A program made the position numbers and the translations under genes. 64,000 bases of DNA from positions 32,001-96,000 of the forward strand of contig JAEOTB010000091.1 in assembly GCA_016840065.1 (NCBI GenBank). The letters are read 5' to 3'. The notes beneath the pieces are model-generated. The model worked only from the letters and a program-made list of their open reading frames with translations, searched no databases and was not told the DNA's origin. This stretch comes from Candidatus Hermodarchaeota archaeon. Lineage in GTDB: Archaea; Asgardarchaeota; Hermodarchaeia; Hermodarchaeales; Hermodarchaeaceae. Shown here one piece after another: positions 7,001 through 22,923 of the stretch. Each line of letters begins with the position of its first letter. The stretch's first letter is position 1.

Positions 7001-7316
7001 AGTTAGTCAATGAATAAGTTAAGGGTATGAAGGGGATGTTTAGAAGAAGAAAGCTCGAGGTTGTAAAAACAAGTAATAATGTAGAAACGAAGAAGCCCTT
7101 TATGACCAATTCTGCAAGGCTAGTGTCTGGATTACTACCAAGTGCTATAAGAAGCATTAGACCTGGGATAATGAACAAGCATGGAAACACGAGTATAATT
7201 TTGATTAGTGGAATTGGTTCCGCTATTGAAAGGACAAGATAGATTAGTTCTAGGAGGATTACAAAGACGAAGAGGCTCTGATTTTTCAGAGTTGTAATAG
7301 TTTCATTTGTAGTCAT
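4029..7316 (-). CDS. Large polytopic membrane protein (GT-C-like) with C-terminal LamG/concanavalin-A-like domain
   Basis: Many TM helices with PDETSY loop; DSSGYGNNG, ALEFDG, WHHFLFTY, LYVDG and FNGCIDNL LamG signatures; C-terminal TM. Confidence 0.7.
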   Translation of the reverse strand: MTTNETITTLKNQSLFVFVILLELIYLVLSIAEPIPLIKIILVFPCLFIIPGLMLLIALGSNPDTSLAELVIKGFFVSTLLLVFTTSSFLLLNIPFIPLTYSLTNFSLVLIATIISVVRKREPKLSKSGFLFTCLVFATYLFVLLFINIFPRFFAPDETSYISTALSGIIDGVISPVGIRPDRAELIALLQGRYFWTYLLCSFICSTGVAGYQAGLIGASFLIMTALTSSLIVKERWMRITVFVIVTLTPRMFYFSALSLNDLALAFYAVFAVLFFSRSFARTEGSVSISVSNLVYSAMGLAALSLIKLNILVLVVMWVLSVYILLRYRLYKTETRYKILLALLVLPVLLYEFCLDIPYVISVWFLQNEYLGSLFGGFLFVSPVEQILGWFLAPPWNPGAVTVFSHGITSSLDYFYCLLSPEASNFLVSAVIVALPLLLLLSPGLRKEFHQSLLAWLILLSLGLFYFNALGSSYISDVGRLSLWIVPLMIPLTLLIMSNIINNPLERNLLPVFLGALLLFLINLFLTIVTIGGVWIDFGFEFRLWTIIVTTLQLAALTTLLASLVHTKRKNYTSFRISLGKSVKWHTSPKKFFSIAMVILILVNGIYYHSVYIRYSTLYEDYGFITMSSALDGYSDKSNLVFTNNYIYMRPYISSDLIQKGLMLPPPDTLNDLDEILETAPADTLFLISDNDKTTWYEYANAYIRPFTYADILTPSPLNISKLSSLSTRVLVMTFDDANETVVPDSSGYGNNGDNYGATLTTGYQGYALEFDGRTQYVTVRASESLNIQNEITIGFFAKIEETDFFTNGSVIAKGNASADGSYEVFVWDNQIRFSLGGVGEILYPIEPYVSSWHHFLFTYTGQKMELYVDGFLVAAKLANGAIRVSPFDLEIGVDASDCCFFNGCIDNLLIAENYVNQTAFIDATANYAPRIHTIPLPQGQANLFQLRNTTSSAGENITVHSSQIGIQEDRSVTIDLGLSASNSKNITILISTDRFTKVYVMSIVPGQNNLEFNFQFNASGQYWPYLSQARIVIIDNHRLVFNELLLVQNTESINIMLSIPLLGVLLTFLFVHWWKSNQGTKRLQNLLLRFRSTH

Positions 7317-7492
7317 CTAATCCTCCCTCGAAATCTCATCTGTTATTTAGATTGGAGCATGTTCTTGGTGTAAATTTGATGTAGGTTTCTAGGATGATGT
7401 TCAAACGTGAACCTTTGTTTAACGATTTCTCTATTCGCTTCACCCAATTTGTGTCTATTGTATCGAGCTGGTAAATCAGCATAAGAAACATC

Positions 7493-8311
7493 TCAAGATT
7501 GTAGAATAGAGGTGTGATGTGCTTCTAATATCAGACACTTATCGTATAGGTTCAGCGTTCGCCCTATGATGTACCCGTGGTTACTCAGCCATTTATGAAT
7601 TTCAAATTCTTTTACAACAGACAAATGAATTTCTATGACAAGACGCTTCACTTTGGTGTATTGCCTCTCTAACCCTTGCAGAACCTCAGTTTCCATCCCT
7701 TCAACATCGATTTTAACTAAATCAACAACTTTGGGCTCTGACAATACATCGTCTAAAGGAACCACTGAAACCGTCGCACTTTCCAATGCGTCAACCAAGA
7801 ACTGATCTTTTAGAGAACTATCACCTCTACTCAAACTTCCAAAATGAAGTACACCTCTACCGCTCTTATCCCCTACTGCTACATCATGGGAGCTGACTCT
7901 TTCTCCGAGTTTGTTTAACCGAATGTTCTTAACAAGAAAGTGATAATTATCAGGATTGGGTTCAAATGCAAGAATTCTCGCTTTGACAGCCTGTTTAGAC
8001 ATTTGAAGAGTAAACAAACCGATGTGCGCTCCAACATCAAGTATGTATTTGAACTGTTCTGCTTGTGCTACGTTGTATATTTCTTTGTGATAAATCTCGG
8101 AGATAATCGTCATGATTCTGAAATCATCTAGTGGATATGCCAAGCGATTTCCATCAGGTAGCGCACCAATTAATCCTCTACCTTTAAACAGCGACCGAAA
8201 CGCTGATGTTACAAGTTTGTGACCGAAAAACAGAGCGAGAAAATTAATACTCAAGTCCCTCAATCTGAGAGGGAGTCGGAGTGTTAGCCAATATTTCAAC
8301 CTTCTAAGCAT
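7493..8311 (-). CDS. FkbM-family methyltransferase
   Basis: LDVGAHIG, AFEP and KIDVEG motifs. Confidence 0.9.
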   Translation of the reverse strand: MLRRLKYWLTLRLPLRLRDLSINFLALFFGHKLVTSAFRSLFKGRGLIGALPDGNRLAYPLDDFRIMTIISEIYHKEIYNVAQAEQFKYILDVGAHIGLFTLQMSKQAVKARILAFEPNPDNYHFLVKNIRLNKLGERVSSHDVAVGDKSGRGVLHFGSLSRGDSSLKDQFLVDALESATVSVVPLDDVLSEPKVVDLVKIDVEGMETEVLQGLERQYTKVKRLVIEIHLSVVKEFEIHKWLSNHGYIIGRTLNLYDKCLILEAHHTSILQS

Positions 8312-8321
8312 TTTTCCTCAC

Positions 8322-9437
8322 TTACAAGGTTTCCAGTACAAGATTGTAAATTTGTAGCAGGCGTTGAAAATGACGTTCACTAGAAAACCTTTGGGTCACG
8401 ATTTCCTTGTTCGCTGCGCCCATCTTCTCCCTTCTACTCGAATCTTCTGCTAGAAAAATCATCTTGTCATAGATTGCATCTGAACCTTTCTGTGATAAGG
8501 GATTGAACAGACAGCTTGTGTCTTGTAATGTCTCTGGAATTCCACCAATATCTGACGCAATTGAAGGGAGCCCGCAGCTCATTGCTTCTAGAAGAGACCA
8601 AGGATGAGCTTCGCTCAATGAGGGTAAAATGAACGCATCAGCCATACTATAAATTTCTGGCATTTTGCTGTGCGGTTGATAACCAATGAATTCCACATGA
8701 CTTTTTATCTTCAGCAAACGTGTTAAGGTTAGAAGCCTCGTCTTTAGGGGACCTTCCCCACATATGACCAGCTTGGCATTACCCATAGCTTGATATGATT
8801 TTACGAATTTACTGAAAGCCTTGAGGAGATTTTCGTGATTTTTTACAGGTGATAGACTCGCAACGTTAAGGAAGATTAAGTCGTTTTTTGATCTAATCCT
8901 TTTCAACCTTACATCCTTCACTTCTTGTTTGCTAAAAAAGCTGACATCTATTCCATTATAAAGAGTGCTTATTTTTTGTGGAGAAACACCAGATGCAGCA
9001 AGTTCTTTCCGAGCCCTTTCACATACAGAGATAATATGGGATGCGGTCTCCCAAGTCTTCCGTGTTGTAATTCTTCCTAGAAGGTTTCGTCTGAGCCCAT
9101 AGCCGACACTAGGCACCGAGAATACATCAACACCGTGTGTATGAACTAGGAGGGGTTTGTTATGTATTCTCTTTGTTAGAGCATACCAGAAACCTAGAGG
9201 AAACGAGAATTGTATATGAAGAATGTCATAATGAACTAACCTTCTCAACAACAGAGATGCGCCTAATAACCGTCCTAAGGGGACCTTGCCTTCGAGTTTT
9301 TTTCGTGAAGCTTTCACGAGAAAAGTATCTACATTAACACCAAATTTCGCCACTCCTTTCTTCAATGAATCTAAGTACTGTGTTTTAGCACATAATGTTG
9401 GAATATCAGTAACCACAGCGATTTTCATTGTAAACAC
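8322..9437 (-). CDS. GT4 glycosyltransferase
   Basis: HTHG, LYNGID and EAHPWSLLEAMSCG (Ex7E) motifs. Confidence 0.9.
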   Translation of the reverse strand: MFTMKIAVVTDIPTLCAKTQYLDSLKKGVAKFGVNVDTFLVKASRKKLEGKVPLGRLLGASLLLRRLVHYDILHIQFSFPLGFWYALTKRIHNKPLLVHTHGVDVFSVPSVGYGLRRNLLGRITTRKTWETASHIISVCERARKELAASGVSPQKISTLYNGIDVSFFSKQEVKDVRLKRIRSKNDLIFLNVASLSPVKNHENLLKAFSKFVKSYQAMGNAKLVICGEGPLKTRLLTLTRLLKIKSHVEFIGYQPHSKMPEIYSMADAFILPSLSEAHPWSLLEAMSCGLPSIASDIGGIPETLQDTSCLFNPLSQKGSDAIYDKMIFLAEDSSRREKMGAANKEIVTQRFSSERHFQRLLQIYNLVLETL

Positions 9438-9449
9438 TCATCAAACATA

Positions 9450-10661
9450 TCAGCGCAATACTCTTAGGATTCTCTCAACTTGAGCATTTATGTCATATTC
9501 CTGGGCAGCTTCAAATGCCTGTCGTGATAACTCACGGAGAAGATGCTCATCCTTGGCTAGCTGAAATATTGCATTGACCATAGCTTCCTCATCACCAGGC
9601 TGTACTAAGAAGACCCCCTTTCCTTCCATTTGTCGAAAGCCCCTTACTGCCGTTGCTATAACTGGTTTCCCAGCAACAAGGGCTTCAACTAGTTTCATAG
9701 GTGTATGAATCAATCCTTCCATTTGCGGACGTGGTATCACAACAACTCTGAACAGTTTGAACATATCCTCAAAGAGACATTCTCTTTTTACTGCACCACA
9801 AAAGATAACATTCCGACCAAGTTCCAGATTTTCTGATAGCTGTTCGAGTTCTTCCTTTAGAGGTCCATCACCTATAATGTATAATTTTACATCTTTCTCT
9901 TTCTTGACTACTTTGGCGAAGCTTTTGATCAGGAAGGGAAGGCCTTGCCATTTGGCTAGTATTCCGAAGTAACCGAATGTTCCTGAAGGTATTTTCTCCA
10001 GCTTTGAAAGTGGAATACTAGACGTGTCTACTGCGATTCTTGTTAAGATGATTTTGTCTCGTGGAAAACCTGTTTTTATGAGCTTTTGCAGATGGGCTTC
10101 ACCCATAACCTTTAGAAAACTGTAGACCTGAAGGTTTTCAAAGAGCTGTAGGATGCCCAAGATTTTTGGTGGAAAGAACATAGTGGCTTCAGGGGAGGTT
10201 GACAGAACCTCACCATCCGCAACGCTTCTAATTCCTAGTATCTTCATTATTGGTGCTAAAGGGAGGGTTGGAATTGAATGCCTTATCATGCAAAGTCGTG
10301 TATTGTTTCTTATGAAAGCATAAACTACTGTGAAGATTTCTACAAGGTAGAAGGCTAGTAAACGCAATATTGTAGTCAATGTGATTCCCGTACTGACTAT
10401 CTCTGGTAATCTTGGTGGATAGAGAGGGATTCTTGTCACTTTGATTCCCTTTTCCCTCATTTCGTCGTCGAATTGTTTTCCGTCTTTGTTCAGGGGACAA
10501 ACTAGAATTACTCGCATGCCTTTGCGCCTAAAGGCGTTAACTAATTCGAGGTAGTTGGAGGTGTCACCAGTTGTTCCAGGGAAATTTGATGGTGAAATAA
10601 CAACAATAGCCCCTCGTTTTCCGTTCATCCCAAGACCACCTACCTTTCTTACCATATTCAA
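9450..10661 (-). CDS. GT4 glycosyltransferase
   Basis: IIGDG and PMKLVEALVAGKPVIAT motifs. Confidence 0.85.
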   Translation of the reverse strand: MNMVRKVGGLGMNGKRGAIVVISPSNFPGTTGDTSNYLELVNAFRRKGMRVILVCPLNKDGKQFDDEMREKGIKVTRIPLYPPRLPEIVSTGITLTTILRLLAFYLVEIFTVVYAFIRNNTRLCMIRHSIPTLPLAPIMKILGIRSVADGEVLSTSPEATMFFPPKILGILQLFENLQVYSFLKVMGEAHLQKLIKTGFPRDKIILTRIAVDTSSIPLSKLEKIPSGTFGYFGILAKWQGLPFLIKSFAKVVKKEKDVKLYIIGDGPLKEELEQLSENLELGRNVIFCGAVKRECLFEDMFKLFRVVVIPRPQMEGLIHTPMKLVEALVAGKPVIATAVRGFRQMEGKGVFLVQPGDEEAMVNAIFQLAKDEHLLRELSRQAFEAAQEYDINAQVERILRVLR

Positions 10662-10680
10662 TAAGGGATTGAAAATTACA

Positions 10681-11436
10681 CTAGGACCTCTGAAATACAG
10701 AAGCCGCTGATTTGAAGTAGATTTGTCTAACAGCTTCTTTTGGAAAGCGACACACTTTGATGGCGTACATTGAAACGTCTATGTCGAAGAAAGGAGCGTC
10801 TGTACCGAACAGGATGTGATCTGCACCGACAGTTTGGACTCCTTTCTTTAGTAATAGGGGGTTCAAACATCCAGATGTATCAAGGAAAATATTTTCTTTC
10901 TCCCTTTTTTCATCCAAGAGTTTTAGTGCTGCAAGAACAAGATCATTAGCTAGACCGCCCATATGAGCGCATACAAACTTGATTTCAGGATACTGCTCGT
11001 TGATTCTCAGGACATATTTTATCCTACTTAATTCGCCACGGCCGCAGTGAATCAGTAATGGTTTTTTGTACTTGGCAGCTAAATCCAAAATCTGAACCGC
11101 TTGGTCGATTCTTTCTTGGTTAATACTCGGATGGAACTTGATACCAAACACATCATCACTGGCAACCATTTCCTCTTCAAACTGATTTGAGTGAAACCAG
11201 ACAAGTGGCCATAGTTTTTCTTTTCCCTCAAACTTCTGAATAGCCGATAAGAAGGCATGGTTTGTATCTACAGCATCCATACCTGATTGAAGTAGTACCA
11301 TGACTACCATCCTATCCACGATTCGTTGGTCAAGTCTTGATTTAATGTGACTGAAATCAAATGTGAATTCAGGCCCGATAGGGTTATTCTTGGGTAGAAA
11401 GTGTACATGAGCATCAATTATCCTCATATTAATCAA
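10681..11436 (-). CDS. Amidohydrolase-family metal-dependent hydrolase
   Basis: IDAHVH, GIKFHP, AHMGG and LFGTDAP motifs. Confidence 0.85.
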   Translation of the reverse strand: MINMRIIDAHVHFLPKNNPIGPEFTFDFSHIKSRLDQRIVDRMVVMVLLQSGMDAVDTNHAFLSAIQKFEGKEKLWPLVWFHSNQFEEEMVASDDVFGIKFHPSINQERIDQAVQILDLAAKYKKPLLIHCGRGELSRIKYVLRINEQYPEIKFVCAHMGGLANDLVLAALKLLDEKREKENIFLDTSGCLNPLLLKKGVQTVGADHILFGTDAPFFDIDVSMYAIKVCRFPKEAVRQIYFKSAASVFQRS

Positions 11437-11987
11437 ATCCTTAGACGTTCGTCTTCGGGGACTTCACCGACAACTCGTGCAGGACTACCTATCACAATCT
11501 TGTAATCAGGAACATCACGTGTAACAAGAGCGCCTGCCCCTACTAGAGCTTCCTTCCCGATTGTGACACCAGGAAGAATTATTACTCCACCAGCAATCCT
11601 CGCACCGAACTTGATTAAGGGTGCATCTCTTTTCACTTCATAATCCCTTCCATGACTTATCTTTCGGGTGTTCAAAGTAGTAACATGAACCGCCATGAAG
11701 ACATGATCCTCAATTACTAGACCACTGGTGAGATGGCATTGCCCATAGATGCTGACATGATCACCGATACTAACCTCATTCTCAACAGCGCAAAGATTTC
11801 CCACAGTTGTGTTCTTTCCAATTACAGTCTTCTCACGTATAGTAGTGAAGCTACAAATGATACTATTATCACCAATCTCAACATCAGGGTAAATCAAAGC
11901 GAACGGCCGGACTGTAACGTTCTTACCCAGCTTAACTGGTCCTAAGAAAATACCACCACTAGTTTGAGTAACCTCCCGAGGCAACAT
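11433..11987 (-). CDS. Hexapeptide-repeat sugar N-acyltransferase (WbpD-like)
   Basis: Left-handed beta-helix repeats; GAGALVTRDV, GSPAR. Confidence 0.85.
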   Translation of the reverse strand: MLPREVTQTSGGIFLGPVKLGKNVTVRPFALIYPDVEIGDNSIICSFTTIREKTVIGKNTTVGNLCAVENEVSIGDHVSIYGQCHLTSGLVIEDHVFMAVHVTTLNTRKISHGRDYEVKRDAPLIKFGARIAGGVIILPGVTIGKEALVGAGALVTRDVPDYKIVIGSPARVVGEVPEDERLRI

Positions 11988-12123
11988 AACCTACTGTCTT
12001 ACAGAGCCCCCTTTTTAGATTTAGGCTTCTCAAAGAGACTAACAGAATAATCTCAACAATCAAGCTGTTAATTAGTTCCAGAATGTTTTTCAACTTGTTA
12101 CGGGGCATTGTTTCCACTGGCTT

Positions 12124-12972
12124 GTGCAAAAATTGATACGGAACGCATTAACCGTTGACCTTGAGGACTGGTTTCACCCCGAATACATTGCTAGTGAAGT
12201 GAACCCAGAACACGCCATTCCGATGATTGAGCAGTCATATGAGAAAACATTGAATCTTCTTAATGAGCTACAAATCAGATCAACATTCTTTGTTAATGGA
12301 CAAATAGCTGAGCGTTACCCGTATATTATTCGTGAAATCGAGAAACAGGGTCATGAAATCGCCTCGCATGGATATACGCATACACCGCTTTGGAGGATGT
12401 CACCAGAAACTTTCGCTAAGGAAGTATCAAAATCAAATACAGCAATTAAGAAGGCTATTAGCAAACATCCAATAGGATTTCGCGCTCCTAGCTTCTCCTT
12501 ATCAAACAAAACGAGCTGGGCATTAAAGATTCTGAAGAAAGCTGGTTACCTTTATGACTCTAGTGTTTTTCCTGTGAGAACCCCTCTTTATGGTGTCAAA
12601 GGAGCTCCATTACGACCATATCGACCATCACTAGTAAACATTGCTGAAGAACAAGAAGATGAACAGATTATAGAGTTTCCACCGTTAGCCATCTCTTTTC
12701 TTGGAATTCGGGTGCCTACACCAGGAGGTTTCTATTTCAGGATTACTCCAGCATCACTCGTCAGACACGCAATTGCCAAAGTAAACCGTCATGGCTACCC
12801 CGCTATGCTCTACTTTCACCCTTGGGAATTAATGGAGGAAACACCACGGATTCGGCTTTCTCTCTTCCGCCGCTTTGTATCCTATGTCAAGTTGTCTCGT
12901 ACTGAGAAGCAAATACGTTCGATAGCTCGTGTATTCAGATTTGCACCAGTTAGGGAAATACTTGAGCTCTAA
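12124..12972 (+). CDS. Polysaccharide deacetylase (DUF3473-type)
   Basis: TVDLEDW, HEIASHGYTH, GFRAPSFS, YDSS and YFHPWE motifs. Confidence 0.9.
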   Translation: MQKLIRNALTVDLEDWFHPEYIASEVNPEHAIPMIEQSYEKTLNLLNELQIRSTFFVNGQIAERYPYIIREIEKQGHEIASHGYTHTPLWRMSPETFAKEVSKSNTAIKKAISKHPIGFRAPSFSLSNKTSWALKILKKAGYLYDSSVFPVRTPLYGVKGAPLRPYRPSLVNIAEEQEDEQIIEFPPLAISFLGIRVPTPGGFYFRITPASLVRHAIAKVNRHGYPAMLYFHPWELMEETPRIRLSLFRRFVSYVKLSRTEKQIRSIARVFRFAPVREILEL

Positions 12973-12974
12973 TT

Positions 12975-14063
12975 TCAAATCGTATCAAGATCTGCCCAAG
13001 TTAGAAACCATCTCATCTTAGCGGATACTGTCTTTCTATCAAACTGACCTGTGTTCAAATGAACGATGAAATAATACTTTTCTGGGCTTGTGAGGAATCC
13101 TAGAGCTTTGAGATCTCGTTGGTATTCTTTGCTCTGTATCATGCAACCCACAAGATCCACGGAACGCTGTTTGAAATATTCTACTGCTTTCTTGAAGAGG
13201 ACGCGACGAGTATAACCGTCGTTCCGTTGAGTTAACACATCAACGATTAGACCGAAATCGAGTTCCATCCTCCGCATTTCTCGTAGGACCATGTATCCGA
13301 CAATTCGCGATTTCCTCATAGCGATTAAGATGTGATAAGCGCGTCCAGGTACACTACTGAATCTGTAATCAAGATAACGACGGTCTCGAACACCTATTAT
13401 TCCATAATCTTGTGAAACTTCATTCCAGAATTCAGTGATTTCTTTAGAAAAAGAAGTAGCAGACTTGAAGTCTATTTCGTTTGACGAAAGCCTAGCTCTG
13501 ATTGATTGTACGCGGTCATATAGATGAGTAATTAGACGCCCAATTTTTGATAATTTCGGGTTTTTCAGGAAGCTTTGAATTATGGCTCCGAAATTTATTG
13601 GTCTGATAAGAACAGGGATTGTGAAGCCGACAAACCATCCCACCTTGAAGTGTCCAGGTAGAACGATACTTGCCGTTGATCCCTCCATTGGAAATCCAGT
13701 GCAGAACGGTATTCCTTCATTCCCAGCACCCTCTAGAGCTGCTCTACCAAGGCGAGTGAACATTCCTTGATACCTGTACTCTGAATGTGTCATGACATCG
13801 ACAACCAATCCCAATATGTGCTCTGTGCCATTGACTGTAAATCTTTCAGGCAAAATGGCGTAATGCCCAACAATTTTACCATGGTCGTCGGCGACCCAAA
13901 TTTTCGAATCTCCAATTGGATTCTGCCTAAACTCCCAATTCCAGAATTCTGTTAGATTTTTTTCTGGTAATAACTCCTTCCCAAAGGCATTTCTTGCCAA
14001 AGCTAGAATCCCAGCTTCATCGCCCCTCTTGTATTTTCTAATTTTCCACGAAACGTCAGGCAT
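12975..14063 (-). CDS. GNAT-family acyltransferase (two-domain)
   Basis: DVMTHSEYRYQGMF acyl-CoA-binding motif A. Confidence 0.75.
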   Translation of the reverse strand: MPDVSWKIRKYKRGDEAGILALARNAFGKELLPEKNLTEFWNWEFRQNPIGDSKIWVADDHGKIVGHYAILPERFTVNGTEHILGLVVDVMTHSEYRYQGMFTRLGRAALEGAGNEGIPFCTGFPMEGSTASIVLPGHFKVGWFVGFTIPVLIRPINFGAIIQSFLKNPKLSKIGRLITHLYDRVQSIRARLSSNEIDFKSATSFSKEITEFWNEVSQDYGIIGVRDRRYLDYRFSSVPGRAYHILIAMRKSRIVGYMVLREMRRMELDFGLIVDVLTQRNDGYTRRVLFKKAVEYFKQRSVDLVGCMIQSKEYQRDLKALGFLTSPEKYYFIVHLNTGQFDRKTVSAKMRWFLTWADLDTI

Positions 14064-14143
14064 TGTATTCGTCTATAATACTGGTGTTATGGATAAGTCT
14101 TGTAGTATGGATAAAAGTCACTGTAGAACTTGTTGGAGGTCAC

Positions 14144-15304
14144 TTACTGCGACAGTACCTTCCTATAAAGCGAAAGGATTTTGCCACTAACTATTGGCCA
14201 AGTGAAATGGGACTGTGCTGTTCTTCGCCCCGCTTCACCTAGCCTCCTTAGGAAGCCTGGGTTGTCTTTCGAATATTGTATGGCCTGTGCTAGATCTGTT
14301 GCCGTGCGGGTTTTAACTAGCAAGTCCTTTCCTTGAGGCAGATAGTGCCTGATGATTTCTTTGTGAGTAGGAATATCACTCAGAATAACTGGTTTACCAA
14401 ACATCCAAGCTTCTGGCAGGACTGTTGGGAACCCTTCGTGAAGAGAAGGAAGGACAACAACATCACATGCTGCATAGTATTTGAAGAGGTCCTCACGTCC
14501 AACCTTTCCTAGAAACCGTACTCTCCCTGATAGATTTGATGGAACTGAATTCATCAGTTCTTCTTTCTGAACACCATCTCCTGCAATCAACAGCACACAA
14601 TTTGAATCACTGATATGGCGCATACTCTCAATCAAATATCTGACACCCTTTTGCCAGCGCAGAACACCTACAAAAAGCAAAACGAATTGGCTATCTAATC
14701 CTAGGAGCTCTCTGACCCTTACCTTATCAAAACGACGCACCAAACGTTGAGAAATATTGGTTGCATTTGGAATAACGAAAATTCGGTTAGCAATTTCTGA
14801 ACCAGCAAACTTGATGAGTAAAGATTGTTCATTTTGTGTCAATGCGATTATCGCGTCAGCTCTACAGAGAGCAAAGCGCGCTCCTGCATTAGCTAGCTTC
14901 AGTAGGGGAAGCATTTTACTAGATACATAATCAGCAGTTGCAAAGCCATGAGAAGTAATAACGAGTGGTCTCTTTGTTAGAAACTTCCGAACAACAGAGC
15001 TGTAGAAAGTCGCTGCTAGTTGTGGTGGGTGAGCGTGTAACAAGTCGAATGTGGCATTCATCTTCAATTGCTTTAGGAATAGCGAAGGCGATAGGGGATT
15101 TCCTCCGATATTGGGAAATCCAGGTGCTAATGTTGTCTTAACTCCTGAAAACGAGCCCTGAAATGTTCTCATCCTATCCCAAGTTGAGAGGACCTCAACG
15201 TCAACCCCTTGTTTCTGTAACTCCTTTGACAGATATAGTGTATAGAATTGGACGCCTCCAATCCGTGGCAAGAAAACATGCGGCACCTGTAAAACTCGCA
15301 TCAC
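14144..15304 (-). CDS. GT4 glycosyltransferase
   Basis: PRIGGV, SHG and EGFPTVLPEA motifs. Confidence 0.9.
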   Translation of the reverse strand: MMRVLQVPHVFLPRIGGVQFYTLYLSKELQKQGVDVEVLSTWDRMRTFQGSFSGVKTTLAPGFPNIGGNPLSPSLFLKQLKMNATFDLLHAHPPQLAATFYSSVVRKFLTKRPLVITSHGFATADYVSSKMLPLLKLANAGARFALCRADAIIALTQNEQSLLIKFAGSEIANRIFVIPNATNISQRLVRRFDKVRVRELLGLDSQFVLLFVGVLRWQKGVRYLIESMRHISDSNCVLLIAGDGVQKEELMNSVPSNLSGRVRFLGKVGREDLFKYYAACDVVVLPSLHEGFPTVLPEAWMFGKPVILSDIPTHKEIIRHYLPQGKDLLVKTRTATDLAQAIQYSKDNPGFLRRLGEAGRRTAQSHFTWPIVSGKILSLYRKVLSQ

Positions 15305-15325
15305 ACTTACTCTCCAAACAAGAAA

Positions 15326-17041
15326 TTATGTAACGAGCCAATAGACGCAAGCTCCAAAGCGTGTATACACTTTAGCGACTGATTTGGCGGCGTCAAGAGG
15401 GTCGGAACACTCCAAGGAATACAACTGCTCTGGATAATCACGAAGGAAGTAAGTTTCCATCATTTCGCTCGTTAGGAGAAATACCGAATGATTTTGAGTT
15501 CTAGAATCCTCTCGGATCAGTAGAGGATTAGAAAGATATGTTTCTTGAAGAGGAAGGAAGAGAAACCTATTACTGTCGGCTGGGAACATACCTTGCATCA
15601 TTATCATCAAACGAGTATCAGTAACCACAAATGATTGAGTGTCTGTCATATCTCGGAGCCATAACCCTCCTCCAATTTCAGATTGGTTCATCCCCTCTGG
15701 ATACCATCCCCCTACAGGCTGATATAGGTTATAGATTCCACCAATAGAGAATGTTAGAAGCAAGAGTGTCATAGTAGAGAGGACAAATAGGTTCTGAGAA
15801 CGCCCCCATTTTTGTTGTGTCTCAACTAGTTTGTACAATGCAACAACAGACATGATAGTAACCGGGATAAGTAAAAAGGCGAAATGTCGGTGACCAATGA
15901 AAACCCAGATACTAGAGCGACCAAGAGAAGCATCGATGAGCGTGAGTAAGCCTGTAATCCCGAATGACGCTCCGATGACCAGAAAAGAGAAGGCGACGAG
16001 AAGTCCAGAGATATTCGACTTGCCAATATCCCAAGGCATTGTTCGTAATACCGAAATCGAAAGGGTGAGAAGACACGAAAGGAGACCAAACTTGAAGATA
16101 ATCCAGAGTACGGGGCGATCATACGGATAGAGAAATATCGTGGAGAAGAAGAAACCTATACCTGCGATACAGCCCAAAGTGAAAAATAGTTTTCCAGCCC
16201 AATTTCTTCTAAATAGTTTCAGGACTCGCCATGCCCAATCCCTCGTGACGTATAAAACAGAAACTGAGGTTGCTAAAACTACTAGACTAAGCAGAATAAT
16301 CGGAAAATAGGCTAGGAACTGAGAGTTAGCTGTTGGATTCACTAGTAATAGTAGAGCAAGTGGCACTGCGATTAAAAATACCGAAAGAGGAATGCCTATC
16401 CTATTTATCGACGAATCCTGACTCAAAACTGACCCGACTAAGAGAGCTAAAACAAAAAGAACTGCGAAGTATGTTGTTAAATGATGAATTAGTGGAAGAC
16501 TGCAAACAGCTACTAGGAGAATTATTAACCATTCCTTGCGGGCTCCAGTCCGTTTCACAATAGATAATGCAGCCAAGAAGGTTAGACTTAGAAACACCAT
16601 TGCTAGATGTTGGGGGATCACCGAGTTTGTTTGAGCTGCTACATCAACATCAAGGGAGAAAATGAACATTGCAATGACGCTTGGCCATCCTTTGCCAAGG
16701 AGGTTTCTGAAAAAAGCGAAGAAAGCAGTAAACCCAGCAAGGACAAGTATTGCTACATACAACCTAAATGTATCAATTAGTGGTAAGCCGAGGAAGATGT
16801 GTATGAGGTAAGCTAATGTGTGGAGGAACGGCATGTACAGATTCGAGTAGTACTCACCATAGAAGGGAATACGGTTATTGGTTATGATTACTTCCGTGGC
16901 ACCCATATGAATCCATGAATCATAGCTGTATGAGCCAGGGAAGAGGAGTAACGGGATGATGCGGGGAATTACCCATATCGCGAAGACGCTAGCAATTGCC
17001 AAGCGGTACATCCCGAGTTTCATAGAACCAGATATCGACAT
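15326..17041 (-). CDS. Polytopic membrane protein, GT-C-like
   Basis: YDSWIH loop after first TM, HHLT motif, many TM segments, soluble C-terminal domain. Confidence 0.55.
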   Translation of the reverse strand: MSISGSMKLGMYRLAIASVFAIWVIPRIIPLLLFPGSYSYDSWIHMGATEVIITNNRIPFYGEYYSNLYMPFLHTLAYLIHIFLGLPLIDTFRLYVAILVLAGFTAFFAFFRNLLGKGWPSVIAMFIFSLDVDVAAQTNSVIPQHLAMVFLSLTFLAALSIVKRTGARKEWLIILLVAVCSLPLIHHLTTYFAVLFVLALLVGSVLSQDSSINRIGIPLSVFLIAVPLALLLLVNPTANSQFLAYFPIILLSLVVLATSVSVLYVTRDWAWRVLKLFRRNWAGKLFFTLGCIAGIGFFFSTIFLYPYDRPVLWIIFKFGLLSCLLTLSISVLRTMPWDIGKSNISGLLVAFSFLVIGASFGITGLLTLIDASLGRSSIWVFIGHRHFAFLLIPVTIMSVVALYKLVETQQKWGRSQNLFVLSTMTLLLLTFSIGGIYNLYQPVGGWYPEGMNQSEIGGGLWLRDMTDTQSFVVTDTRLMIMMQGMFPADSNRFLFLPLQETYLSNPLLIREDSRTQNHSVFLLTSEMMETYFLRDYPEQLYSLECSDPLDAAKSVAKVYTRFGACVYWLVT

Positions 17042-17142
17042 TGACCTTAAAGGCTTGACGATTAAAGAATAATGAGAGTACCGCAGCAGTAAATGAAACA
17101 GCCTTAAGGAGCAAGGTTACTCGATTTGCTTGGTGGTTTGAA

Positions 17143-18480
17143 TTGAGTGCATGGCAGGTAATGGTGTTTATTGGAACTCGTCCCGAGATTGTCAAAATGG
17201 CGCCAGTTATCAAGGCATTGGAGACTGACAATCGATTCCAACTAGTTATTGTTGATTCAGGTCAACATTACGACGAACAGCTTAGTTCTGTCTTCTTTGA
17301 AACTTTTCACCTTCCACGAGCTCAATATAGTTTGGACGTGGGGTCGGGAACTCATGCAAGCCAAACAGGAAAGATAATGATAGCTGCAGAGAAAATCATC
17401 ACGGAAACCAAGCCTGATATTATTTTAGTCCAAGGAGATACAAACACTGTTTTGGCAACTGCATTAGCAGCCGTAAAAGCTCAAATTCCATTTGGACACG
17501 TTGAAGCAGGGCTCAGAAGCTTTGATCGAACTATGCCAGAGGAGATTAATCGTATTGTTGCTGATCAATGTTCTGAACTTCATTTCGCTCCAACGCCACT
17601 AGCAGCAAACAATCTTCTTTTCGAAGGATTTGATCCTAGGACGATTCATATTACTGGCAATACTAACATCGATGCGATTCTTCAGTTCAAAGAAATCAGT
17701 TCGAGACAATCAAAAATAATTGACAGGCTAGATTTAGAAGGGACACCGTTTGCAGTCGTCACTATTCACCGCCCTGCAACTGTGGATTATGAAGATGCAT
17801 TAACCTCAACTGTATCTGCATTCCTTAACCTCACTGAATTAAGACTGGTTCTTCCTGTACACCCACGAACCCGAAAAGCGTTAGAACGATTTGGTTTATT
17901 TGAACAACTGGAATCTGCTTCTCATATAATCCTCACTGAACCTCTCGGGTTCATTGATTTCCTTCGCTTGATGTCCGAGGCACGGATTATACTGACTGAT
18001 TCAGGTGGTATACAAGAAGAAGCCTTCACCCTTGGCAAGCCCTGTATTACTTTGCGTGTAAATACAGAGCGACCAGAAAGTCTTCATCTTGGAGCTAACT
18101 TCCTTGTTGGTCGCTCAACGGATCGCATCGTGGAAGTTACTCGTAGTGTTTTAGCAGATTCGACACTAAGCGATCGCATCAACCGTCTCCCTAATCCTTT
18201 TGGGGATGGAAACGCTAGCGAACGAATAGTGAAAGGTGTTGTCCGATTCTGTAGGGAAGGCCGCGCTTTTGTAAAGCCTCATTTATTTGAAACAGGTATG
18301 CGTAATCGAACACTACAGCACGTAAGCAGGGAGTTACAGGGGATGACCATCCTTGAAGCTGAACAGAAAATAGGCGGTAAGATTATGTTGCTCTTCGACG
18401 AGAGTGGTTGTGCAGTTTTTCCAGAAACTGCTAGAAAATTGGCTCTTGGACAACATTTCATTTTAGCTATAGAGAAATAG
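17143..18480 (+). CDS. wecB: UDP-GlcNAc 2-epimerase with C-terminal TrkA_C-like extension
   Basis: GTRPE, GQHY, QGDT, HVEAGLRS, TDSGGIQEEA and NPFGDG motifs, then about 75 extra aa. Confidence 0.9.
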   Translation: MSAWQVMVFIGTRPEIVKMAPVIKALETDNRFQLVIVDSGQHYDEQLSSVFFETFHLPRAQYSLDVGSGTHASQTGKIMIAAEKIITETKPDIILVQGDTNTVLATALAAVKAQIPFGHVEAGLRSFDRTMPEEINRIVADQCSELHFAPTPLAANNLLFEGFDPRTIHITGNTNIDAILQFKEISSRQSKIIDRLDLEGTPFAVVTIHRPATVDYEDALTSTVSAFLNLTELRLVLPVHPRTRKALERFGLFEQLESASHIILTEPLGFIDFLRLMSEARIILTDSGGIQEEAFTLGKPCITLRVNTERPESLHLGANFLVGRSTDRIVEVTRSVLADSTLSDRINRLPNPFGDGNASERIVKGVVRFCREGRAFVKPHLFETGMRNRTLQHVSRELQGMTILEAEQKIGGKIMLLFDESGCAVFPETARKLALGQHFILAIEK

Positions 18481-18635: not shown

Positions 18636-19166
18636 TTACACACAACCTTGGCTTTTCATGTAATCAAGGATTTTTTGCGCACATTCTTGTGGTGTCTCTT
18701 GCTCAGTATCCACCACAACTTCAGGATTTAATGGATCTTCATAGGGGTCATCAATACCAGTACATTGTTTAACTTCCCCAGCCAGAGCTCGTTTGTATAG
18801 ACCCTTAGGGTCTCGACGTATACACTCTTCGATAGAGGCCTTGACGAAGACTTCGATGAATCGGTCGAGTTGAGACCGTGCATAAGCTCGTGTTACCCTG
18901 TATGGAGAGATAAGACTAACAACTACATTGACACCATTTCGCATCAGCAATTTACTTAGATATATTACACGGCGGTTATGCAGGTTGCGCTCCTCAGCGC
19001 TGAAACCTAGTTTGGGACTTAACTCCTGGCGCACCTCGTCGCCGTCAAGTACTTCGATTTTTTCTCTTCTCTTGCGAAGCTCTGTTTCTATGAGCCGAGC
19101 GATGGTTGTTTTCCCACAACCAGGAAGTCCTGTTAGCCAAACTACACAGCCTAGTCCCATTTTCAT
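18636..19166 (-). CDS. cysC: Adenylyl-sulfate kinase
   Basis: WLTGLPGCGKTT, LDGD, RDPKGLY and TGIDDPYE motifs. Confidence 0.95.
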   Translation of the reverse strand: MKMGLGCVVWLTGLPGCGKTTIARLIETELRKRREKIEVLDGDEVRQELSPKLGFSAEERNLHNRRVIYLSKLLMRNGVNVVVSLISPYRVTRAYARSQLDRFIEVFVKASIEECIRRDPKGLYKRALAGEVKQCTGIDDPYEDPLNPEVVVDTEQETPQECAQKILDYMKSQGCV

Positions 19167-20548
19167 TTCACCTTGATGATTTTTCCTTCCATGCCTTTTG
19201 GCACTTTCAGACCCATAGCATGCAGGATAGTTGGTGCTACATCATAGAGCGTTATATTCTGAATTATACCTCCTACCTTATGTTTAGGGTCCCAGAGAAT
19301 GAATATACCATCCCAGTCATGCACTGCATCATCGGGTCCTGTGTCATTCTCTGAGAGATGGAGGCAGTTGTGTCCGAGTGTGCCAGTTGAGCGATAAGAT
19401 AGGTCATCGAAATAAACCATTAAATCAGGAGGATTCCCCTTTACAACTCCTCCATATAACTCGGCAGGTATGTAAACTTTAGTATCCAGAGCCTCTCCAT
19501 TAACCCCTCGAATTTGTCGCAGTTTCTCCGATACCTCGCTGCGGATTCTCTCGAAATCCTTCGAATCTATAACACCTGTTTCTTCGCGCCCTTTCACATT
19601 GAAAAAAACGCGTGCGTAATACCCACCCCAACCCCATGCAGTGGTATTCTCCCAGTCAATGTCAGCCTCATCGAGACGTACCTGTTTTATGGGGTGTGCC
19701 TTAAGTTTGAGGTATCCTTCTCGCACAAGCCACTCGTTGATACAGATAACACCTTTCATAGGCTTGGCACCATGATCTGATACAACAATGACTACCGTGT
19801 CATCATCAATAATCTCCAAAAGCTCACCAATCTTGCCATCAAGATACTGATAATAATCTGAAAATAGGGATTCATACTTGCTGCCAGGCTCGTGAAGATG
19901 GTGCGTTTTATCGTAATATTTCCAAAAACCATGATGAAGCCTATCAGGACCCATCTCAACAAACATGAAAAAGTCCCAAGGCTTACTCTTCATGAGATAC
20001 GAGACTACTTTGAACCGGTTTTCGGTCAGAGCGTACAAATCCTTTAGTAAACGATCCTTGTCATCTGTACGAAACCCCTTTACATCCAGCAAATACCCGC
20101 CCAATTTGTCTATCTCTTCCTTTAAACTAGGGGGTGATGTATATTGACTTTTTATAGAAGGAGCAAGAAAACCTGAAATTGATAAACCTGTTACACATGG
20201 CGGCGGGTAGGAGGGAGGAACACCCACAATGCAGACATACTTGCCTCTCTTTGAGAGGATATCCCAAACCGCAAGCTCTTTGACATCATATGAGGTAGCG
20301 ATGTTGAACTCTGTATAGGAATTGCCACTTCGATGTCGGAAGCCGTAGATACCTAGCTGACCAGGAGACTGCCCAGTACTCATTACAACCCAGGCCGGAC
20401 ATGTGATTGGAGGATTTGAACTACGCATCCGTCCATAGATTCCTTCTTCACGCAGCCTCGTAAGATTCGGCATCACATTGGCTAGTTGGTCGAAGACCAA
20501 TTCTGGAGCTGCACAGTCCAAACCAATCACTAATACTTTACGAGGCAC
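19163..20548 (-). CDS. Alkaline-phosphatase-superfamily enzyme (type I phosphodiesterase/nucleotide pyrophosphatase-like)
   Basis: GLD, PPITCPAW (Thr nucleophile), DRLHH, SDHG and DAVH metal ligands. Confidence 0.85.
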   Translation of the reverse strand: MPRKVLVIGLDCAAPELVFDQLANVMPNLTRLREEGIYGRMRSSNPPITCPAWVVMSTGQSPGQLGIYGFRHRSGNSYTEFNIATSYDVKELAVWDILSKRGKYVCIVGVPPSYPPPCVTGLSISGFLAPSIKSQYTSPPSLKEEIDKLGGYLLDVKGFRTDDKDRLLKDLYALTENRFKVVSYLMKSKPWDFFMFVEMGPDRLHHGFWKYYDKTHHLHEPGSKYESLFSDYYQYLDGKIGELLEIIDDDTVVIVVSDHGAKPMKGVICINEWLVREGYLKLKAHPIKQVRLDEADIDWENTTAWGWGGYYARVFFNVKGREETGVIDSKDFERIRSEVSEKLRQIRGVNGEALDTKVYIPAELYGGVVKGNPPDLMVYFDDLSYRSTGTLGHNCLHLSENDTGPDDAVHDWDGIFILWDPKHKVGGIIQNITLYDVAPTILHAMGLKVPKGMEGKIIKVK

Positions 20549-20563
20549 TGCAACTTCACCAAA

Positions 20564-21703
20564 TCATGAAACGAAAGGCTCAGGGTGACTTGCAATCATT
20601 TCTGCAACCTCCCGTCTCATAAGAGACTCAGGTGGATTTCGACCTTCTTGGAAATATCTGCGAATCTCCGTTCCACTGAAATCAATATGATTACTTTTGG
20701 GATGAGGGCAAGTCTTCTCGTTAGCGATACTCCTACATTTTGTACAATAGAAGAATGATTTGAAGAGTAGCGGGATAATCTCAAGATCGGGAAACTTATC
20801 GAAGATTTCCTGTGCTGCAAGGGGATGATAGAATTTTCCAACACCCGCATGATCCCTTCCCACAATGAAATGAGTGCACCCAAAATTTTTACGCATTATA
20901 GCGTGATGAATGGCTTCACGGGGTCCAGCGTAATACATTGGTGAGCGGAGAATACTGAGGACACAATTTTCTCGGAGGAAATATGTTTTCATTAAAGTGC
21001 GGTATGCATCAAGGATAACTTCATCGCGGAAATCACCTTGTTTCTTTGGTCCTATTAGAGGGTTGATAAAAATCCCGTCAACAAAGGTTAATGCTGTTTT
21101 TTTAACATATTCATGACCGAGATGTGGTGGATTTCTAGTTTGAAATGCTACTATTGTCCTCCACCTTTTTGTTTTAAACAAAATCCTAGTATCTAATGGA
21201 TACAGCGTTACTTCTTCGAAATTCAAAGGCGGGGAGGAGATTACAGAGAGTTTCCCACCTAGTAGGGTCTTCTCCATGGTATGAGTCCTAGCTACACCAG
21301 GGTGCTCCGAGTCCTGTGTGCCAAACACTTGCTGAGAGAAATACCTTTTGTCAAGCGTGAATTTGTCTTCAACAAGTAGAACAGCAACTGGAGCACCATC
21401 TAGACACAGAACTACTTCGTCGTCAACCGAGAAATCGTTATCTTGATTGACATCGAATACGATCGGTATGGTCCACGGAACATCAGAGAGCAAACGCATG
21501 TCGTCTAACACATTGTTGGTCTCGTCTTCTGTCATGAACCCAGTTAAAGGGCTGAGAACGCCATGCCCGATATTCTGAACTATATCAGTCAATGTTGAGG
21601 ATATGTCAATGGTCTGATATTCGCTGATTTGTACCTTCAGTTTGTCAGAATCTTTGTCGGATAGCAACCGAGAAACAAGGTGACCGCCATGTGCTTGGTT
21701 CAT
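20564..21703 (-). CDS. sat: Sulfate adenylyltransferase
   Basis: AFQTRNPPHLGH, AGPREAIHHA and GRDHAG motifs. Confidence 0.95.
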   Translation of the reverse strand: MNQAHGGHLVSRLLSDKDSDKLKVQISEYQTIDISSTLTDIVQNIGHGVLSPLTGFMTEDETNNVLDDMRLLSDVPWTIPIVFDVNQDNDFSVDDEVVLCLDGAPVAVLLVEDKFTLDKRYFSQQVFGTQDSEHPGVARTHTMEKTLLGGKLSVISSPPLNFEEVTLYPLDTRILFKTKRWRTIVAFQTRNPPHLGHEYVKKTALTFVDGIFINPLIGPKKQGDFRDEVILDAYRTLMKTYFLRENCVLSILRSPMYYAGPREAIHHAIMRKNFGCTHFIVGRDHAGVGKFYHPLAAQEIFDKFPDLEIIPLLFKSFFYCTKCRSIANEKTCPHPKSNHIDFSGTEIRRYFQEGRNPPESLMRREVAEMIASHPEPFVS

Positions 21704-21716
21704 TCTCTTCCCCCAA

Positions 21717-21950
21717 TCAATCCAAATATCCTAGGGCCCGAAGGCGCGCTTTAATGCGTTTTTCATCTTCGGAAGAGAAGGCCTTTTCAGTAGATTGCTG
21801 GGATTCTTCTGCGAAGATTTCTCGAAGAACATAAGTAACGTAATCGGAAACAGAGGAGAAGCCTGTGTCTTCGATACGCGCTTTGATTTTTCCAAAAAGG
21901 GTCTTTGGGATAGAGACGGTCGTGTATTTGCGTTTGGATTTAGGACTCAT
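21717..21950 (-). CDS. CopG/ribbon-helix-helix regulator with C-terminal RLRALGY tail
   Basis: YTTVSIP strand plus two helices (SVSDYVTYVLRE); ends EDEKRIKARLRALGYLD. Confidence 0.85.
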   Translation of the reverse strand: MSPKSKRKYTTVSIPKTLFGKIKARIEDTGFSSVSDYVTYVLREIFAEESQQSTEKAFSSEDEKRIKARLRALGYLD

Positions 21951-21986
21951 TGACTTGTTCTCCTTTTAATTTTGATAGATGGTTAT

Positions 21987-22022
21987 TAATGCCAGGGCAT
22001 TAAATTTAATGTTATGACATTA
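21987..22022. promoter_or_regulatory. Twin palindromic operator candidate TAATG-N6-CATTA x2 over the promoter of the RHH-sat operon
   Basis: TAATGCCAGGGCATTA (21987-22002), AATT, TAATGTTATGACATTA (22007-22022); begins 37 bp upstream of the RHH start. Confidence 0.7.
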
Positions 22023-22125
22023 CACTCTTTCAAATGAGTTCTGCTTCCATCAACGATTATACTAACCAGAAAAAGTCTATCAACCACTGTTCTGGTTGAT
22101 TTTGGAGATAAAACATGAAGGCGAT

Positions 22126-22923
22126 TTAGAACCAGGAGAATAGAGCTATTGCCTTAATGAGAGTTAATGCTCCTAGAAAGATTGTGGCTACACCGATTAT
22201 CCTAGACTGTTGTCTTCCTTCGGTACGCTTGACAAAATAACTACCTAGAGGTGCAGCGATAACTGCACCCCCAAAAAGGAAAATTGTATAGAAAATAAAA
22301 TAAACATCGAAAATCAATCGACCTAGTAAAATGTATAATGTCACGGCAGTTATACTCACTACTGCTTTAGAGACTGTTGTACAGCCAATCGATTGTGAAG
22401 CTTCTCTTCCTGAGAGAATCTGGCCCCCCGCCACTAGTGGAGTGTAACCCCCACCAGTCAAACCCTTATTAATGGCAGCAACCCCGCCAAGAACAACGAT
22501 TTTTCTCCACGAGAAGGCTATTTTGAATTCAACAATAACTAGTATACCCAGCAATAGAACTGTAAGCCCAACATAGGCTTGGATAAGAATAGGAGTAATA
22601 CTAACAAGCGTGTAGAATAATAGAATAGCAGTTACTGCCCCTATCATCCCTGAGATAGAAAGCGCAATCACCATTTTTGAATCGTCGGAGAAGGAGAAAT
22701 TTACATTGCCATGAACTTGAAAGGCAATGGCAGTAGCAATTGATGCACCAATTGAGGAAAATAGAATTGCTGGCACCACTTCTATTACTGGTAAGTTAAG
22801 TAGAATTAATACAGGGGTCAAGAATGTGCCATATCCAAATCCAAATACGGCATCAAGAAATTCAGCTACAAACCCGAGAATGAATAGTAACAGTAGTAGA
22901 TTAAGACCTCCGTCCATTACCAT
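22126..22923 (-). CDS. TauE/SafE-family (TSUP) permease
   Basis: FLDAVFGFGYGTFLTP and GLTGGGYTP repeats, about 8 TM. Confidence 0.85.
   Translation of the reverse strand: MVMDGGLNLLLLLFILGFVAEFLDAVFGFGYGTFLTPVLILLNLPVIEVVPAILFSSIGASIATAIAFQVHGNVNFSFSDDSKMVIALSISGMIGAVTAILLFYTLVSITPILIQAYVGLTVLLLGILVIVEFKIAFSWRKIVVLGGVAAINKGLTGGGYTPLVAGGQILSGREASQSIGCTTVSKAVVSITAVTLYILLGRLIFDVYFIFYTIFLFGGAVIAAPLGSYFVKRTEGRQQSRIIGVATIFLGALTLIKAIALFSWF

Follow-up and report, generated by a model that had tools for sequence, protein, structure and literature searches.

A PAPS-supply cassette with an AlkP-fold enzyme and a predicted regulator-tail contact, at the edge of a Hermodarchaeota glycan locus

The sequence considered here is a stretch of 64,000 nucleotides of archaeal DNA (the window), from a metagenome-assembled genome (MAG) that is 84% complete and whose nearest named relatives are Candidatus Hermodarchaeota. 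Between positions 18636 and 22923 it carries a block of five genes, which includes the two enzymes that make 3′-phosphoadenosine 5′-phosphosulfate (PAPS), namely ATP sulfurylase (Sat) and adenosine 5′-phosphosulfate (APS) kinase (CysC), and between them an enzyme of the AlkP fold that belongs to the nucleotide pyrophosphatase/phosphodiesterase (NPP) type. The block represents, in an Asgard (Hermodarchaeota-like) host, a published, horizontally spread and self-contained PAPS-supply cassette. Most of what follows concerns the AlkP enzyme, its probable role in the cassette, and its predicted contact with a small ribbon-helix-helix (RHH) protein. The features of the block are listed below in the order in which the genes are read.

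22126-22923, minus strand: TauE/SafE-family (TSUP) anion permease, 265 aa (PF01925, E 5.3e-20)
21987-22022, no strand: candidate operator, twin 16-bp palindromes TAATGY-N4-RCATTA placed 4 bp apart (found by reading the sequence)
21717-21950, minus strand: RHH (CopG-like) protein, 77 aa (alignment pattern of 40 homologues)
20564-21703, minus strand: ATP sulfurylase Sat, 379 aa, with a PUA-like N-domain (PF01747, E 3.5e-84; PF14306, PUA_2)
19163-20548, minus strand: NPP-type AlkP enzyme, 461 aa, GTG start (PF01663, Phosphodiest, 165.7 bits)
18636-19166, minus strand: APS kinase CysC, 176 aa (PF01583, E 4e-55)

Sat also matches the NCBIfam model NF003166 (469 bits; cut-off 387), and CysC matches TIGR00455 (207.9 bits; cut-off 138.7). 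The original prediction described the five genes as co-oriented and tightly packed, and both the coordinates and the domain matches bear this out. The RHH gene and sat are separated by 13 nt, sat and the AlkP gene by 15 nt, and the stop codon of the AlkP gene and the start codon of cysC overlap by 4 nt. The interval between tauE and the RHH gene is 175 nt and contains a promoter-like gap, so that tauE is possibly on a transcript of its own. Judging from its sequence, TauE is probably the sulfate (or sulfite) transporter of the module; its direction of transport is one that we infer. The position of the gene varies: in L006, the closest relative, it lies 3′ of cysC, as do TauE-family genes in three other loci (L025, L044, L066), and a tauE gene is reported adjacent to the corresponding cluster of Pyrococcus yayanosii (PMC8268124).

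Homologous loci were collected by two scans of species-representative genomes and one scan seeded with a Thermococcus homologue, which together gave 187 de-duplicated loci with AlkP identities of 46-84%. Linkage was counted when a gene for Sat or CysC lay no more than 3 kb from the AlkP gene on the same strand, and this is the case in 172 of the 187 loci, in archaea and bacteria alike. Among the loci with room on both sides (n=123), Sat or CysC is present in 118, both are present in 77, and a small RHH gene is present in 90. This gene arrangement is far beyond chance. The order RHH-sat-AlkP-cysC recurs in Asgard archaea, Bathyarchaeia, Nitrososphaeria, Thermoplasmata, Archaeoglobi, Thermococci, Chloroflexota, Aminicenantes, Eubacteriales and others, and Methanocaldococcus is likewise among the hosts of AlkP loci. 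Fusions join the enzyme to both of its partners: Sat and AlkP form a single 863-aa open reading frame (ORF) in Anaerolineae, and AlkP is fused to CysC in L020, L027 and the metagenomic protein P0041 (a Nitrosopumilaceae locus and a Desulfocucumis locus are included). On the strength of the conserved gene order and of the fusions to both partners, we consider the AlkP gene to be part of the module, and the functional tie to PAPS synthesis that had been proposed from the window alone is upheld across two domains of life.

The cassette was found in 56 of the 201 Asgard genomes surveyed, and in many other phyla. Within Asgard archaea the AlkP enzyme is patchy, being present in 3/3 genomes of the window’s genus and in 0/15 of the sister genus, a distribution that fits an accessory, transferable cassette. 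Archaea and many uncultured bacteria have sulfated glycans and lipids that are still poorly understood, and this cassette is the most widespread source of PAPS for them.

The same set of genes has been published for Thermococcales. In P. yayanosii, the genes PYCH_17520-17560 encode a copG regulator, ATP sulfurylase, a DHH-type phosphatase (pApase) for 3′-phosphoadenosine 5′-phosphate (PAP), an enzyme described as a type I phosphodiesterase/nucleotide pyrophosphatase, and APS kinase, with a tauE gene adjacent; the range PYCH_17520-17570 is also given for the cluster. The DHH pApase was characterized and crystallized in that study, and the cluster was noted in Ferroglobus, Aciduliprofundum, Aeropyrum and Ignicoccus as well (PMC8268124). 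In Thermococcus onnurineus, the corresponding genes are given as TON_1704 (APS kinase), TON_1705 (pyrophosphatase), TON_1706 (PAP phosphatase) and TON_1707 (ATP sulfurylase) in PMC4463584, which cites Lee et al. 2009. No records of T. onnurineus or P. yayanosii appear by name among the loci returned by the three locus scans, and a locus from a Thermococcus sp. MAG (L135) served as their proxy. This locus has the order RHH-Sat-DHH-AlkP-CysC, the one published for both species, and its proteins are 67% (RHH), 50% (Sat), 51% (AlkP, full length) and 54% (CysC) identical to those of the window.

The block and the Thermococcales clusters therefore have in common the copG/RHH gene, ATP sulfurylase, the NPP-type enzyme and APS kinase in the same order, with tauE nearby; in the window, RHH-sat-AlkP-cysC is preceded by TauE. 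The DHH gene, which lies between sat and the AlkP gene in the 44 of 187 loci that have it, is an optional component. The window differs from the Thermococcales clusters in having no DHH pApase gene at that position, in its mesophile-like Asgard host, and in the glycan locus that abuts the block. Although the cassette itself was already published for Thermococcales, the predicted interaction between the regulator’s tail and the AlkP active site, set out below, is new here; tail docking and an operator are not described for the Thermococcales clusters in PMC8268124, PMC4463584 or PMC9653972.

The AlkP enzyme is a member of the NPP/Phosphodiest family, since its match to PF01663 (cut-off 23 bits) extends over profile positions 1-330 of 342. 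The match to the Sulfatase family (PF00884) is weak (residues 193-265 only, 28.9 bits), when the protein by itself was searched against PDB sequences, the only match was a marginal one to a sulfatase, and no match to the sulfotransferase families PF00685 and PF13469 was found in the Pfam and NCBIfam scans. It was claimed earlier that the protein has a threonine in the motif PPITCPAW rather than a sulfatase motif. This is correct: the motif occupies residues 46-53, and the formylglycine-sulfatase motif C/S-x-P-x-R is absent, Thr49 being followed by C-P-A-W. Across 18 homologues, seven residues do not vary (D11, T49, D202, H206, D258, H259 and H410). In a profile alignment T49 and the SDHG motif match the Xanthomonas enzyme Xac NPP, with Thr49 at the position of the Xac NPP nucleophile; Thr49 is accordingly the predicted nucleophile, and the other six invariant residues the predicted ligands of two metals.

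The AlphaFold2 (AF2) model of the enzyme has a mean predicted local distance difference test score (pLDDT) of 92.9. The top 50 Foldseek matches to it include ENPP1/3/6, autotaxin, Xac NPP and PhnA, with E values down to 1e-17, TM-scores of ~0.6 and identities of ~15%. The enzyme thus has the fold, Pfam family, Thr nucleophile and two-metal ligand set of the NPPs (Xanthomonas NPP, ENPP1/3/6) and PhnA, but differs from them in its low identity, its genetic tie to Sat and CysC, and three features of the protein. First, there is no signal peptide; the first metal ligand is at the very start of the protein, which points to a cytoplasmic enzyme. Second, a beta-rich subdomain of ~90 residues is inserted, which bears the invariant sequence AWGWGGYYAR, and the enzyme as a whole has many invariant Arg residues. 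Third, the base-stacking aromatic residue after the nucleophile is absent, the sequence being T-C-P-A-W in the window and T-I-P-A-W in the family consensus, versus T-F-P-N in Xac NPP. The absence of this residue speaks against a typical nucleotide diester as the substrate.

The reading that we favor, and hold with moderate confidence, is that the enzyme is an AlkP-fold pyrophosphatase that drives sulfate activation within the PAPS cassette, to which we add the predicted docking of the regulator’s tail. The layout of such a cassette would be RHH, Sat, an optional PAP phosphatase (DHH or PHP), AlkP, CysC and an optional TauE. Sulfate would enter the cell, probably via TauE, and Sat would convert it to APS and pyrophosphate (PPi). 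The AlkP enzyme would then hydrolyze PPi at its two-metal/Thr49 site, pulling the very unfavorable Sat reaction forward, and CysC would phosphorylate APS to PAPS. The RHH protein would bind the twin palindromes at the promoter, and its C-terminal tail would enter the catalytic groove of the AlkP enzyme, so that occupancy of the enzyme would be coupled with transcription (or with enzyme activity). The PAPS so made would finally be used by a classical sulfotransferase whose gene lies elsewhere, by another consumer in the neighboring glycan pathway, or by both. If the enzyme is a pyrophosphatase (PPase), the cassette would be a natural “PAPS factory” that brings its own driving and clean-up enzymes, which would be useful for biocatalytic production of PAPS.

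The pyrophosphatase activity itself comes from the literature on the Thermococcus orthologue. In PMC9653972, TON_1705 is tabulated as a PPase with a pH optimum of 9.5, a kcat of 2.1 per s and a Km of 18.8 uM. With the methanogen enzymes in vitro, ATP sulfurylase was rate-limited by the removal of PPi (PMC10322725). The Methanothermococcus thermolithotrophicus locus of that study resembles the cassette in having stand-alone Sat and CysC and a DHH PAP phosphatase, as well as in the need for fast PPi removal in vitro; it differs in that a separate, unlinked pyrophosphatase was proposed, and in that the pathway continues to sulfide via PAPS reductase and Fsr. In the window’s genome, given its 84% completeness, no family I PPase was found, and a local PPase at Sat would make sense on that account, which is a weak point in favor. 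A membrane H+/Na+-PPase is present, split over two contig ends (C64:5-1402 and C122:1-843).

Triple fusions of APS kinase, ATP sulfurylase and pyrophosphatase exist in some algae and oomycetes. There a PPase is physically coupled to sulfate activation, and on the pyrophosphatase reading the fusions of AlkP to Sat or CysC would do likewise; the PPase of those fusions differs in being an ordinary family I enzyme and not of the AlkP fold.

Several points weigh against a pyrophosphatase. The assignment of TON_1705 as a PPase comes from three citing papers (PMC4463584, PMC9653972 and PMC8268124), the last of which calls the role of its counterpart PYCH_17550 “speculated”. The tabulated kcat is orders of magnitude under that of dedicated PPases, and the family I PPase of T. 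onnurineus, Ton1914, is far faster than TON_1705 (PMC9653972), so that PPi hydrolysis could be a side activity. Orthology to TON_1705 is drawn through the Thermococcus MAG and not through the assayed sequence, and is to that extent a presumed one. A plain PPase has no obvious need for a long invariant peptide-binding groove, or for an invariant Tyr at the nucleophile, as the complex model described below would have it. Half of the cassette genomes have no classical sulfotransferase, and such a gene is almost never found next to the cassette. Finally, family I PPase (PF00719) was found in 22 of 50 cassette genomes versus 10 of 14 control genomes, which is a weak trend. The idea that cassette hosts characteristically lack a soluble PPase was considered and rejected: with so weak a trend, and with both enzymes in T. 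onnurineus, it does not discriminate.

The 77-aa protein encoded between the candidate operator and sat has no Pfam match above the cut-off. The alignment of its 40 homologues shows a beta-alpha-alpha RHH pattern followed by an acidic linker, with L70, L73, G74 and Y75 invariant; the P. yayanosii homologue was named copG (PMC8268124). The protein ends in an invariant tail, ...E-E-x-[IV]-K-x-R-L-R-A-L-G-Y-L-D (the LGY tail), and the RHH protein of the Thermococcus locus L135 ends in an identical ...RLRALGYLD. The tail was found in 132 of 154 loci, where it is carried by the small RHH protein (121), by CysC (26), by AlkP or a paralogue (2), or by other proteins (4). Its occurrence on CysC is notable in loci with a fused Sat-AlkP. 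In the window’s genome the RHH protein is the only ORF with the tail, and the C-terminus of the window’s CysC does not have it.

A predicted complex of the AlkP enzyme with the RHH protein gave an ipSAE interface score of 0.70, whereas the highest-scoring of three controls had 0.00. The three runs share at least 88% of their contacts, and the pLDDT of the partner is at least 75. In a benchmark, 58 of 80 solved complexes and 2 of 110 mismatched pairs attained this score, counts that hold only roughly here because our own alignments were used. In the predicted complex, RHH residues 57-77 lie in a groove lined by family-invariant AlkP residues. The contacts include T49, F70, R71, the metal ligand H206, W307-Y310 and D406 (invariant and beside the metal site), and Tyr75 of the tail touches I48, the nucleophile T49, C50, G69, F70, R71 and G309. 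The RHH tail is thus predicted to bind the catalytic groove of the AlkP enzyme, and we read it as a pseudo-substrate, or substrate-like plug, that would tie the regulator (or CysC) to the AlkP active site. As a weak second opinion, the AF2 model of L072, the one orthologue with the tail in cis, has a tail helix with a pLDDT of ~78 after a low-confidence linker, which would be compatible with docking.

The twin palindromes lie 37-72 bp upstream of the RHH start, at the promoter of the operon. The pattern occurs twice in the window versus 0 expected occurrences (100 shuffles), and it is found at the same place in two Hermodarchaeota relatives (two copies in L006 and one copy in L007) and in no other of 165 loci. 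From this arrangement, the palindromes are probably a lineage-specific operator of the RHH protein. An analogy, though not membership, can be drawn with type II RHH antitoxins, in that an N-terminal RHH domain is combined with a tail predicted in the partner’s active site and with a paired-palindrome operator upstream of its own operon. The cassette differs in that the partner is a metabolic enzyme without known toxicity, and in that the tail is found on CysC or on the enzyme in other lineages. If the tail does plug the active site, this would be a compact coupling of a metabolic enzyme to transcription.

The possible users of PAPS in the host were sought by a six-frame profile search of the entire MAG. 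Matches to Sulfotransfer_1/3 and PAPS_reduct were found, all of them outside the window, which agrees with the earlier claim that the window lacks a sulfotransferase and a reductase; Sulfotransfer_2, Stf0-type and NIR_SIR domains were found nowhere in the MAG. The single classical sulfotransferase is a fragment at a contig end (C76:7350-8072, L165) that has lost its N-terminal PAPS loop. Its counterpart in a congener (G083:C494:1463-1720, L246) is 65% identical and is likewise a contig-end fragment. The two together make it probable that the host has a conventional PAPS user. The occurrence of the gene at contig ends in two genomes suggests a hard-to-assemble, perhaps variable, region.

The sole PAPS_reduct protein of the MAG (C36:24504-28037; L003:826-2811, minus strand) is 661 aa long and combines PUA, PAPS_reduct and 4Fe-4S dicluster domains. 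It was considered as a PAPS reductase, but its PUA domain suggests an RNA-modifying enzyme, and no sulfite reductase was found; the protein may be such an enzyme or an unusual PAPS/APS reductase. Proteins of ~650 aa that resemble it occur in other Asgard genomes. By its own terms, the original prediction would be weakened by a classical sulfotransferase or assimilatory reductase elsewhere that accounts for the use of PAPS; the sulfotransferase on C76, with its counterpart in the congener, is partly such a case.

Across the 50 cassette genomes surveyed, Sulfotransfer_1/3 is present in only 25, so that a PAPS consumer is missing in many hosts. Neither the closed Bathyarchaeota chromosome CP070754.1 nor the Asgard genome G196, which is 100% complete, has Sulfotransfer_1/3 or PAPS_reduct, although both encode the enzyme; this raises the question of the PAPS consumer in complete genomes without a known sulfotransferase or PAPS reductase. 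For P. yayanosii, no sulfotransferase or sulfite-reducing enzyme was identified by the authors (PMC8268124). In the Asgard survey a sulfotransferase is present in 26 of 56 genomes with the enzyme versus 59 of 145 genomes without it, and a sulfotransferase-like ORF lies in the flanks of only 3 of 233 cassette loci. The idea of the cassette as a supplier of classical sulfotransferases was dropped for lack of association in the 201 Asgard genomes and of adjacency in the 233 loci, a result that neither proves nor disproves the possibility that the AlkP enzyme is itself a transferase.

This possibility, in which the enzyme is a PAPS (or APS) consumer, that is, a non-classical sulfuryl transferase acting through a covalent Thr49 intermediate or by direct two-metal transfer, we consider unlikely. 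The acceptor may be a glycan or lipid of the neighboring pathway, or the LGY-tail tyrosine itself. In its favor are the patterns just described, namely the hosts without a classical sulfotransferase (half of the cassette genomes, CP070754.1, G196 and P. yayanosii), the lack of enrichment with the enzyme in Asgard genomes and the near absence of sulfotransferase-like ORFs from cassette flanks. Against these patterns it must be kept in mind that MAGs are incomplete, that only some sulfotransferase families were searched in the other genomes, and that the window’s own genus does have a classical sulfotransferase. The presence of PAP phosphatases within cassettes implies that something turns PAPS into PAP, and divergent paralogues of the AlkP enzyme cluster with flippases, PIG-L deacetylases and glycan genes. 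The main enzyme, however, is as conserved as Sat and CysC (~50% across domains), which is more in keeping with one small, fixed substrate than with acceptors that vary. The predicted complex, which sets Tyr75 against Thr49, also counts in favor. There is, on the other side, no precedent for PAPS sulfuryl transfer by an NPP-type Thr enzyme, and the only biochemistry for this family has the assayed orthologue TON_1705 reported as a PPase (PMC8268124, PMC4463584, PMC9653972). Literature searches on COG3379 and on AlkP-superfamily sulfotransferases gave nothing relevant.

The divergent paralogues (24-31% identity, 450-630 aa) are found in L014, L019, L020, L031, L045, L076 and L004, where they cluster with the main enzyme, PIG-L deacetylases and a Wzx flippase, with up to three paralogues in one Nitrosomirales locus. 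In several of them a related, basic amphipathic C-terminal helix replaces the LGY tail.

A more specific proposal, and one that we regard as quite improbable, is that the enzyme is a new PAPS-dependent transferase for which the LGY-tail tyrosine is the acceptor, so that the tail of the RHH protein, CysC or AlkP paralogues would come to bear a sulfotyrosine (or be nucleotidylated). If true, the modified tail could be a feedback signal, or an aryl-sulfate carrier that feeds the AlkP paralogues of glycan clusters, and a tail-tyrosine transferase would explain the many cassette hosts without a classical sulfotransferase.

We give similarly little credence to the enzyme being a nucleotide phosphoanhydride hydrolase that acts on APS or PAPS (or on ATP/ADP), as a safety valve or as a sensor whose product competes with the RHH tail and so provides feedback to the operon. 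Its nearest folds are indeed nucleotide pyrophosphatases (ENPP1, NPP3 and Xac NPP), but the base-stacking Phe of the NPP motif TFPN is Ile or Cys in the cassette enzymes. The predicted docking of the tail in the catalytic groove suggests competition with a ligand; in 26 loci the tail is carried by CysC, beside the site of PAPS synthesis, and AlkP-CysC fusions exist. Hydrolysis of the operon’s own product would, however, be wasteful, and the reported substrates of TON_1705 point to PPi.

That the enzyme is the PAP phosphatase of the module, an analogue of CysQ, is very improbable: PAP must be removed wherever PAPS is used, the window’s cassette is without a DHH gene and a tblastn search of the genome gave no DHH-type pApase homologue, but DHH pApases stand beside the AlkP gene in the 44 loci mentioned (including Thermococcus, Archaeoglobi and Hadarchaeota cassettes) and match the solved M. 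thermolithotrophicus enzyme 8a8k (E 5e-40), PHP-type phosphatases lie 3′ of the AlkP gene in the bacterial loci L047, L075 and L081, the window’s genome encodes a PHP protein 41% identical to these, the protein with pApase activity in both T. onnurineus and P. yayanosii is the DHH one (PMC8268124), and the AlkP fold differs from those of PAP phosphatases (CysQ, DHH/NrnA and PHP). The PAP-recycling role suggested at the outset as an alternative is rejected on these grounds; with the slot filled by known families that co-occur with the enzyme, the AlkP enzyme must do something else.

Several variants of the cassette deserve mention. In some genomes only AlkP and CysC adjoin, and we considered whether AlkP substitutes for Sat there; this was rejected, as Sat is encoded elsewhere in 5/5 such genomes. 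In four Bathyarchaeia loci (L013, L038, L055 and L057) the cysC slot 3′ of the AlkP gene is taken by two proteins with PhoU/TrkA_C domains; these loci have no adjacent APS kinase, and they have a ~600-aa gene on the opposite strand. In the complete genomes of Methanocaldococcus sp. 16A and 28A (L175 and L177) the AlkP enzyme is 85-86% identical to the Thermococcus enzyme, above expectation for the distance between the hosts, which points to recent transfer among hyperthermophiles. In a group of bacterial loci from Aminicenantes and Eubacteriales (L033, L037, L039, L061, L067-L069, L071 and L085), sugar-nucleotide genes follow 3′ of cysC or of the AlkP gene on the same strand, namely an SDR epimerase/dehydratase and two UDP-glucose 6-dehydrogenase genes. 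The gene content hints that a uronic-acid glycan may be the target of sulfation in those cassettes.

The module was originally described as embedded among glycosyltransferases. This holds for one flank, where a glycan locus is found, but not for the other, which begins with aCPSF1/FttA; the module is therefore at the edge of the glycan locus and not inside it. The features of interest in this flank are the following.

1111-18480, no strand: glycan-biosynthesis locus, a possible user of PAPS (Pfam and NCBIfam scans)
4029-7316: unassigned 1095-aa ORF of the glycan locus
15326-17041: unassigned 571-aa ORF of the glycan locus, without a Pfam or NCBIfam match

The locus encodes a Wzx-like flippase, four GT4 glycosyltransferases, an FkbM methyltransferase, a hexapeptide acyltransferase, a polysaccharide deacetylase, a GNAT protein and WecB. 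The WecB homologue (17143-18480) is 445 aa long; its epimerase domain stops at about residue 364, leaving an unassigned C-terminal extension of ~80 residues.

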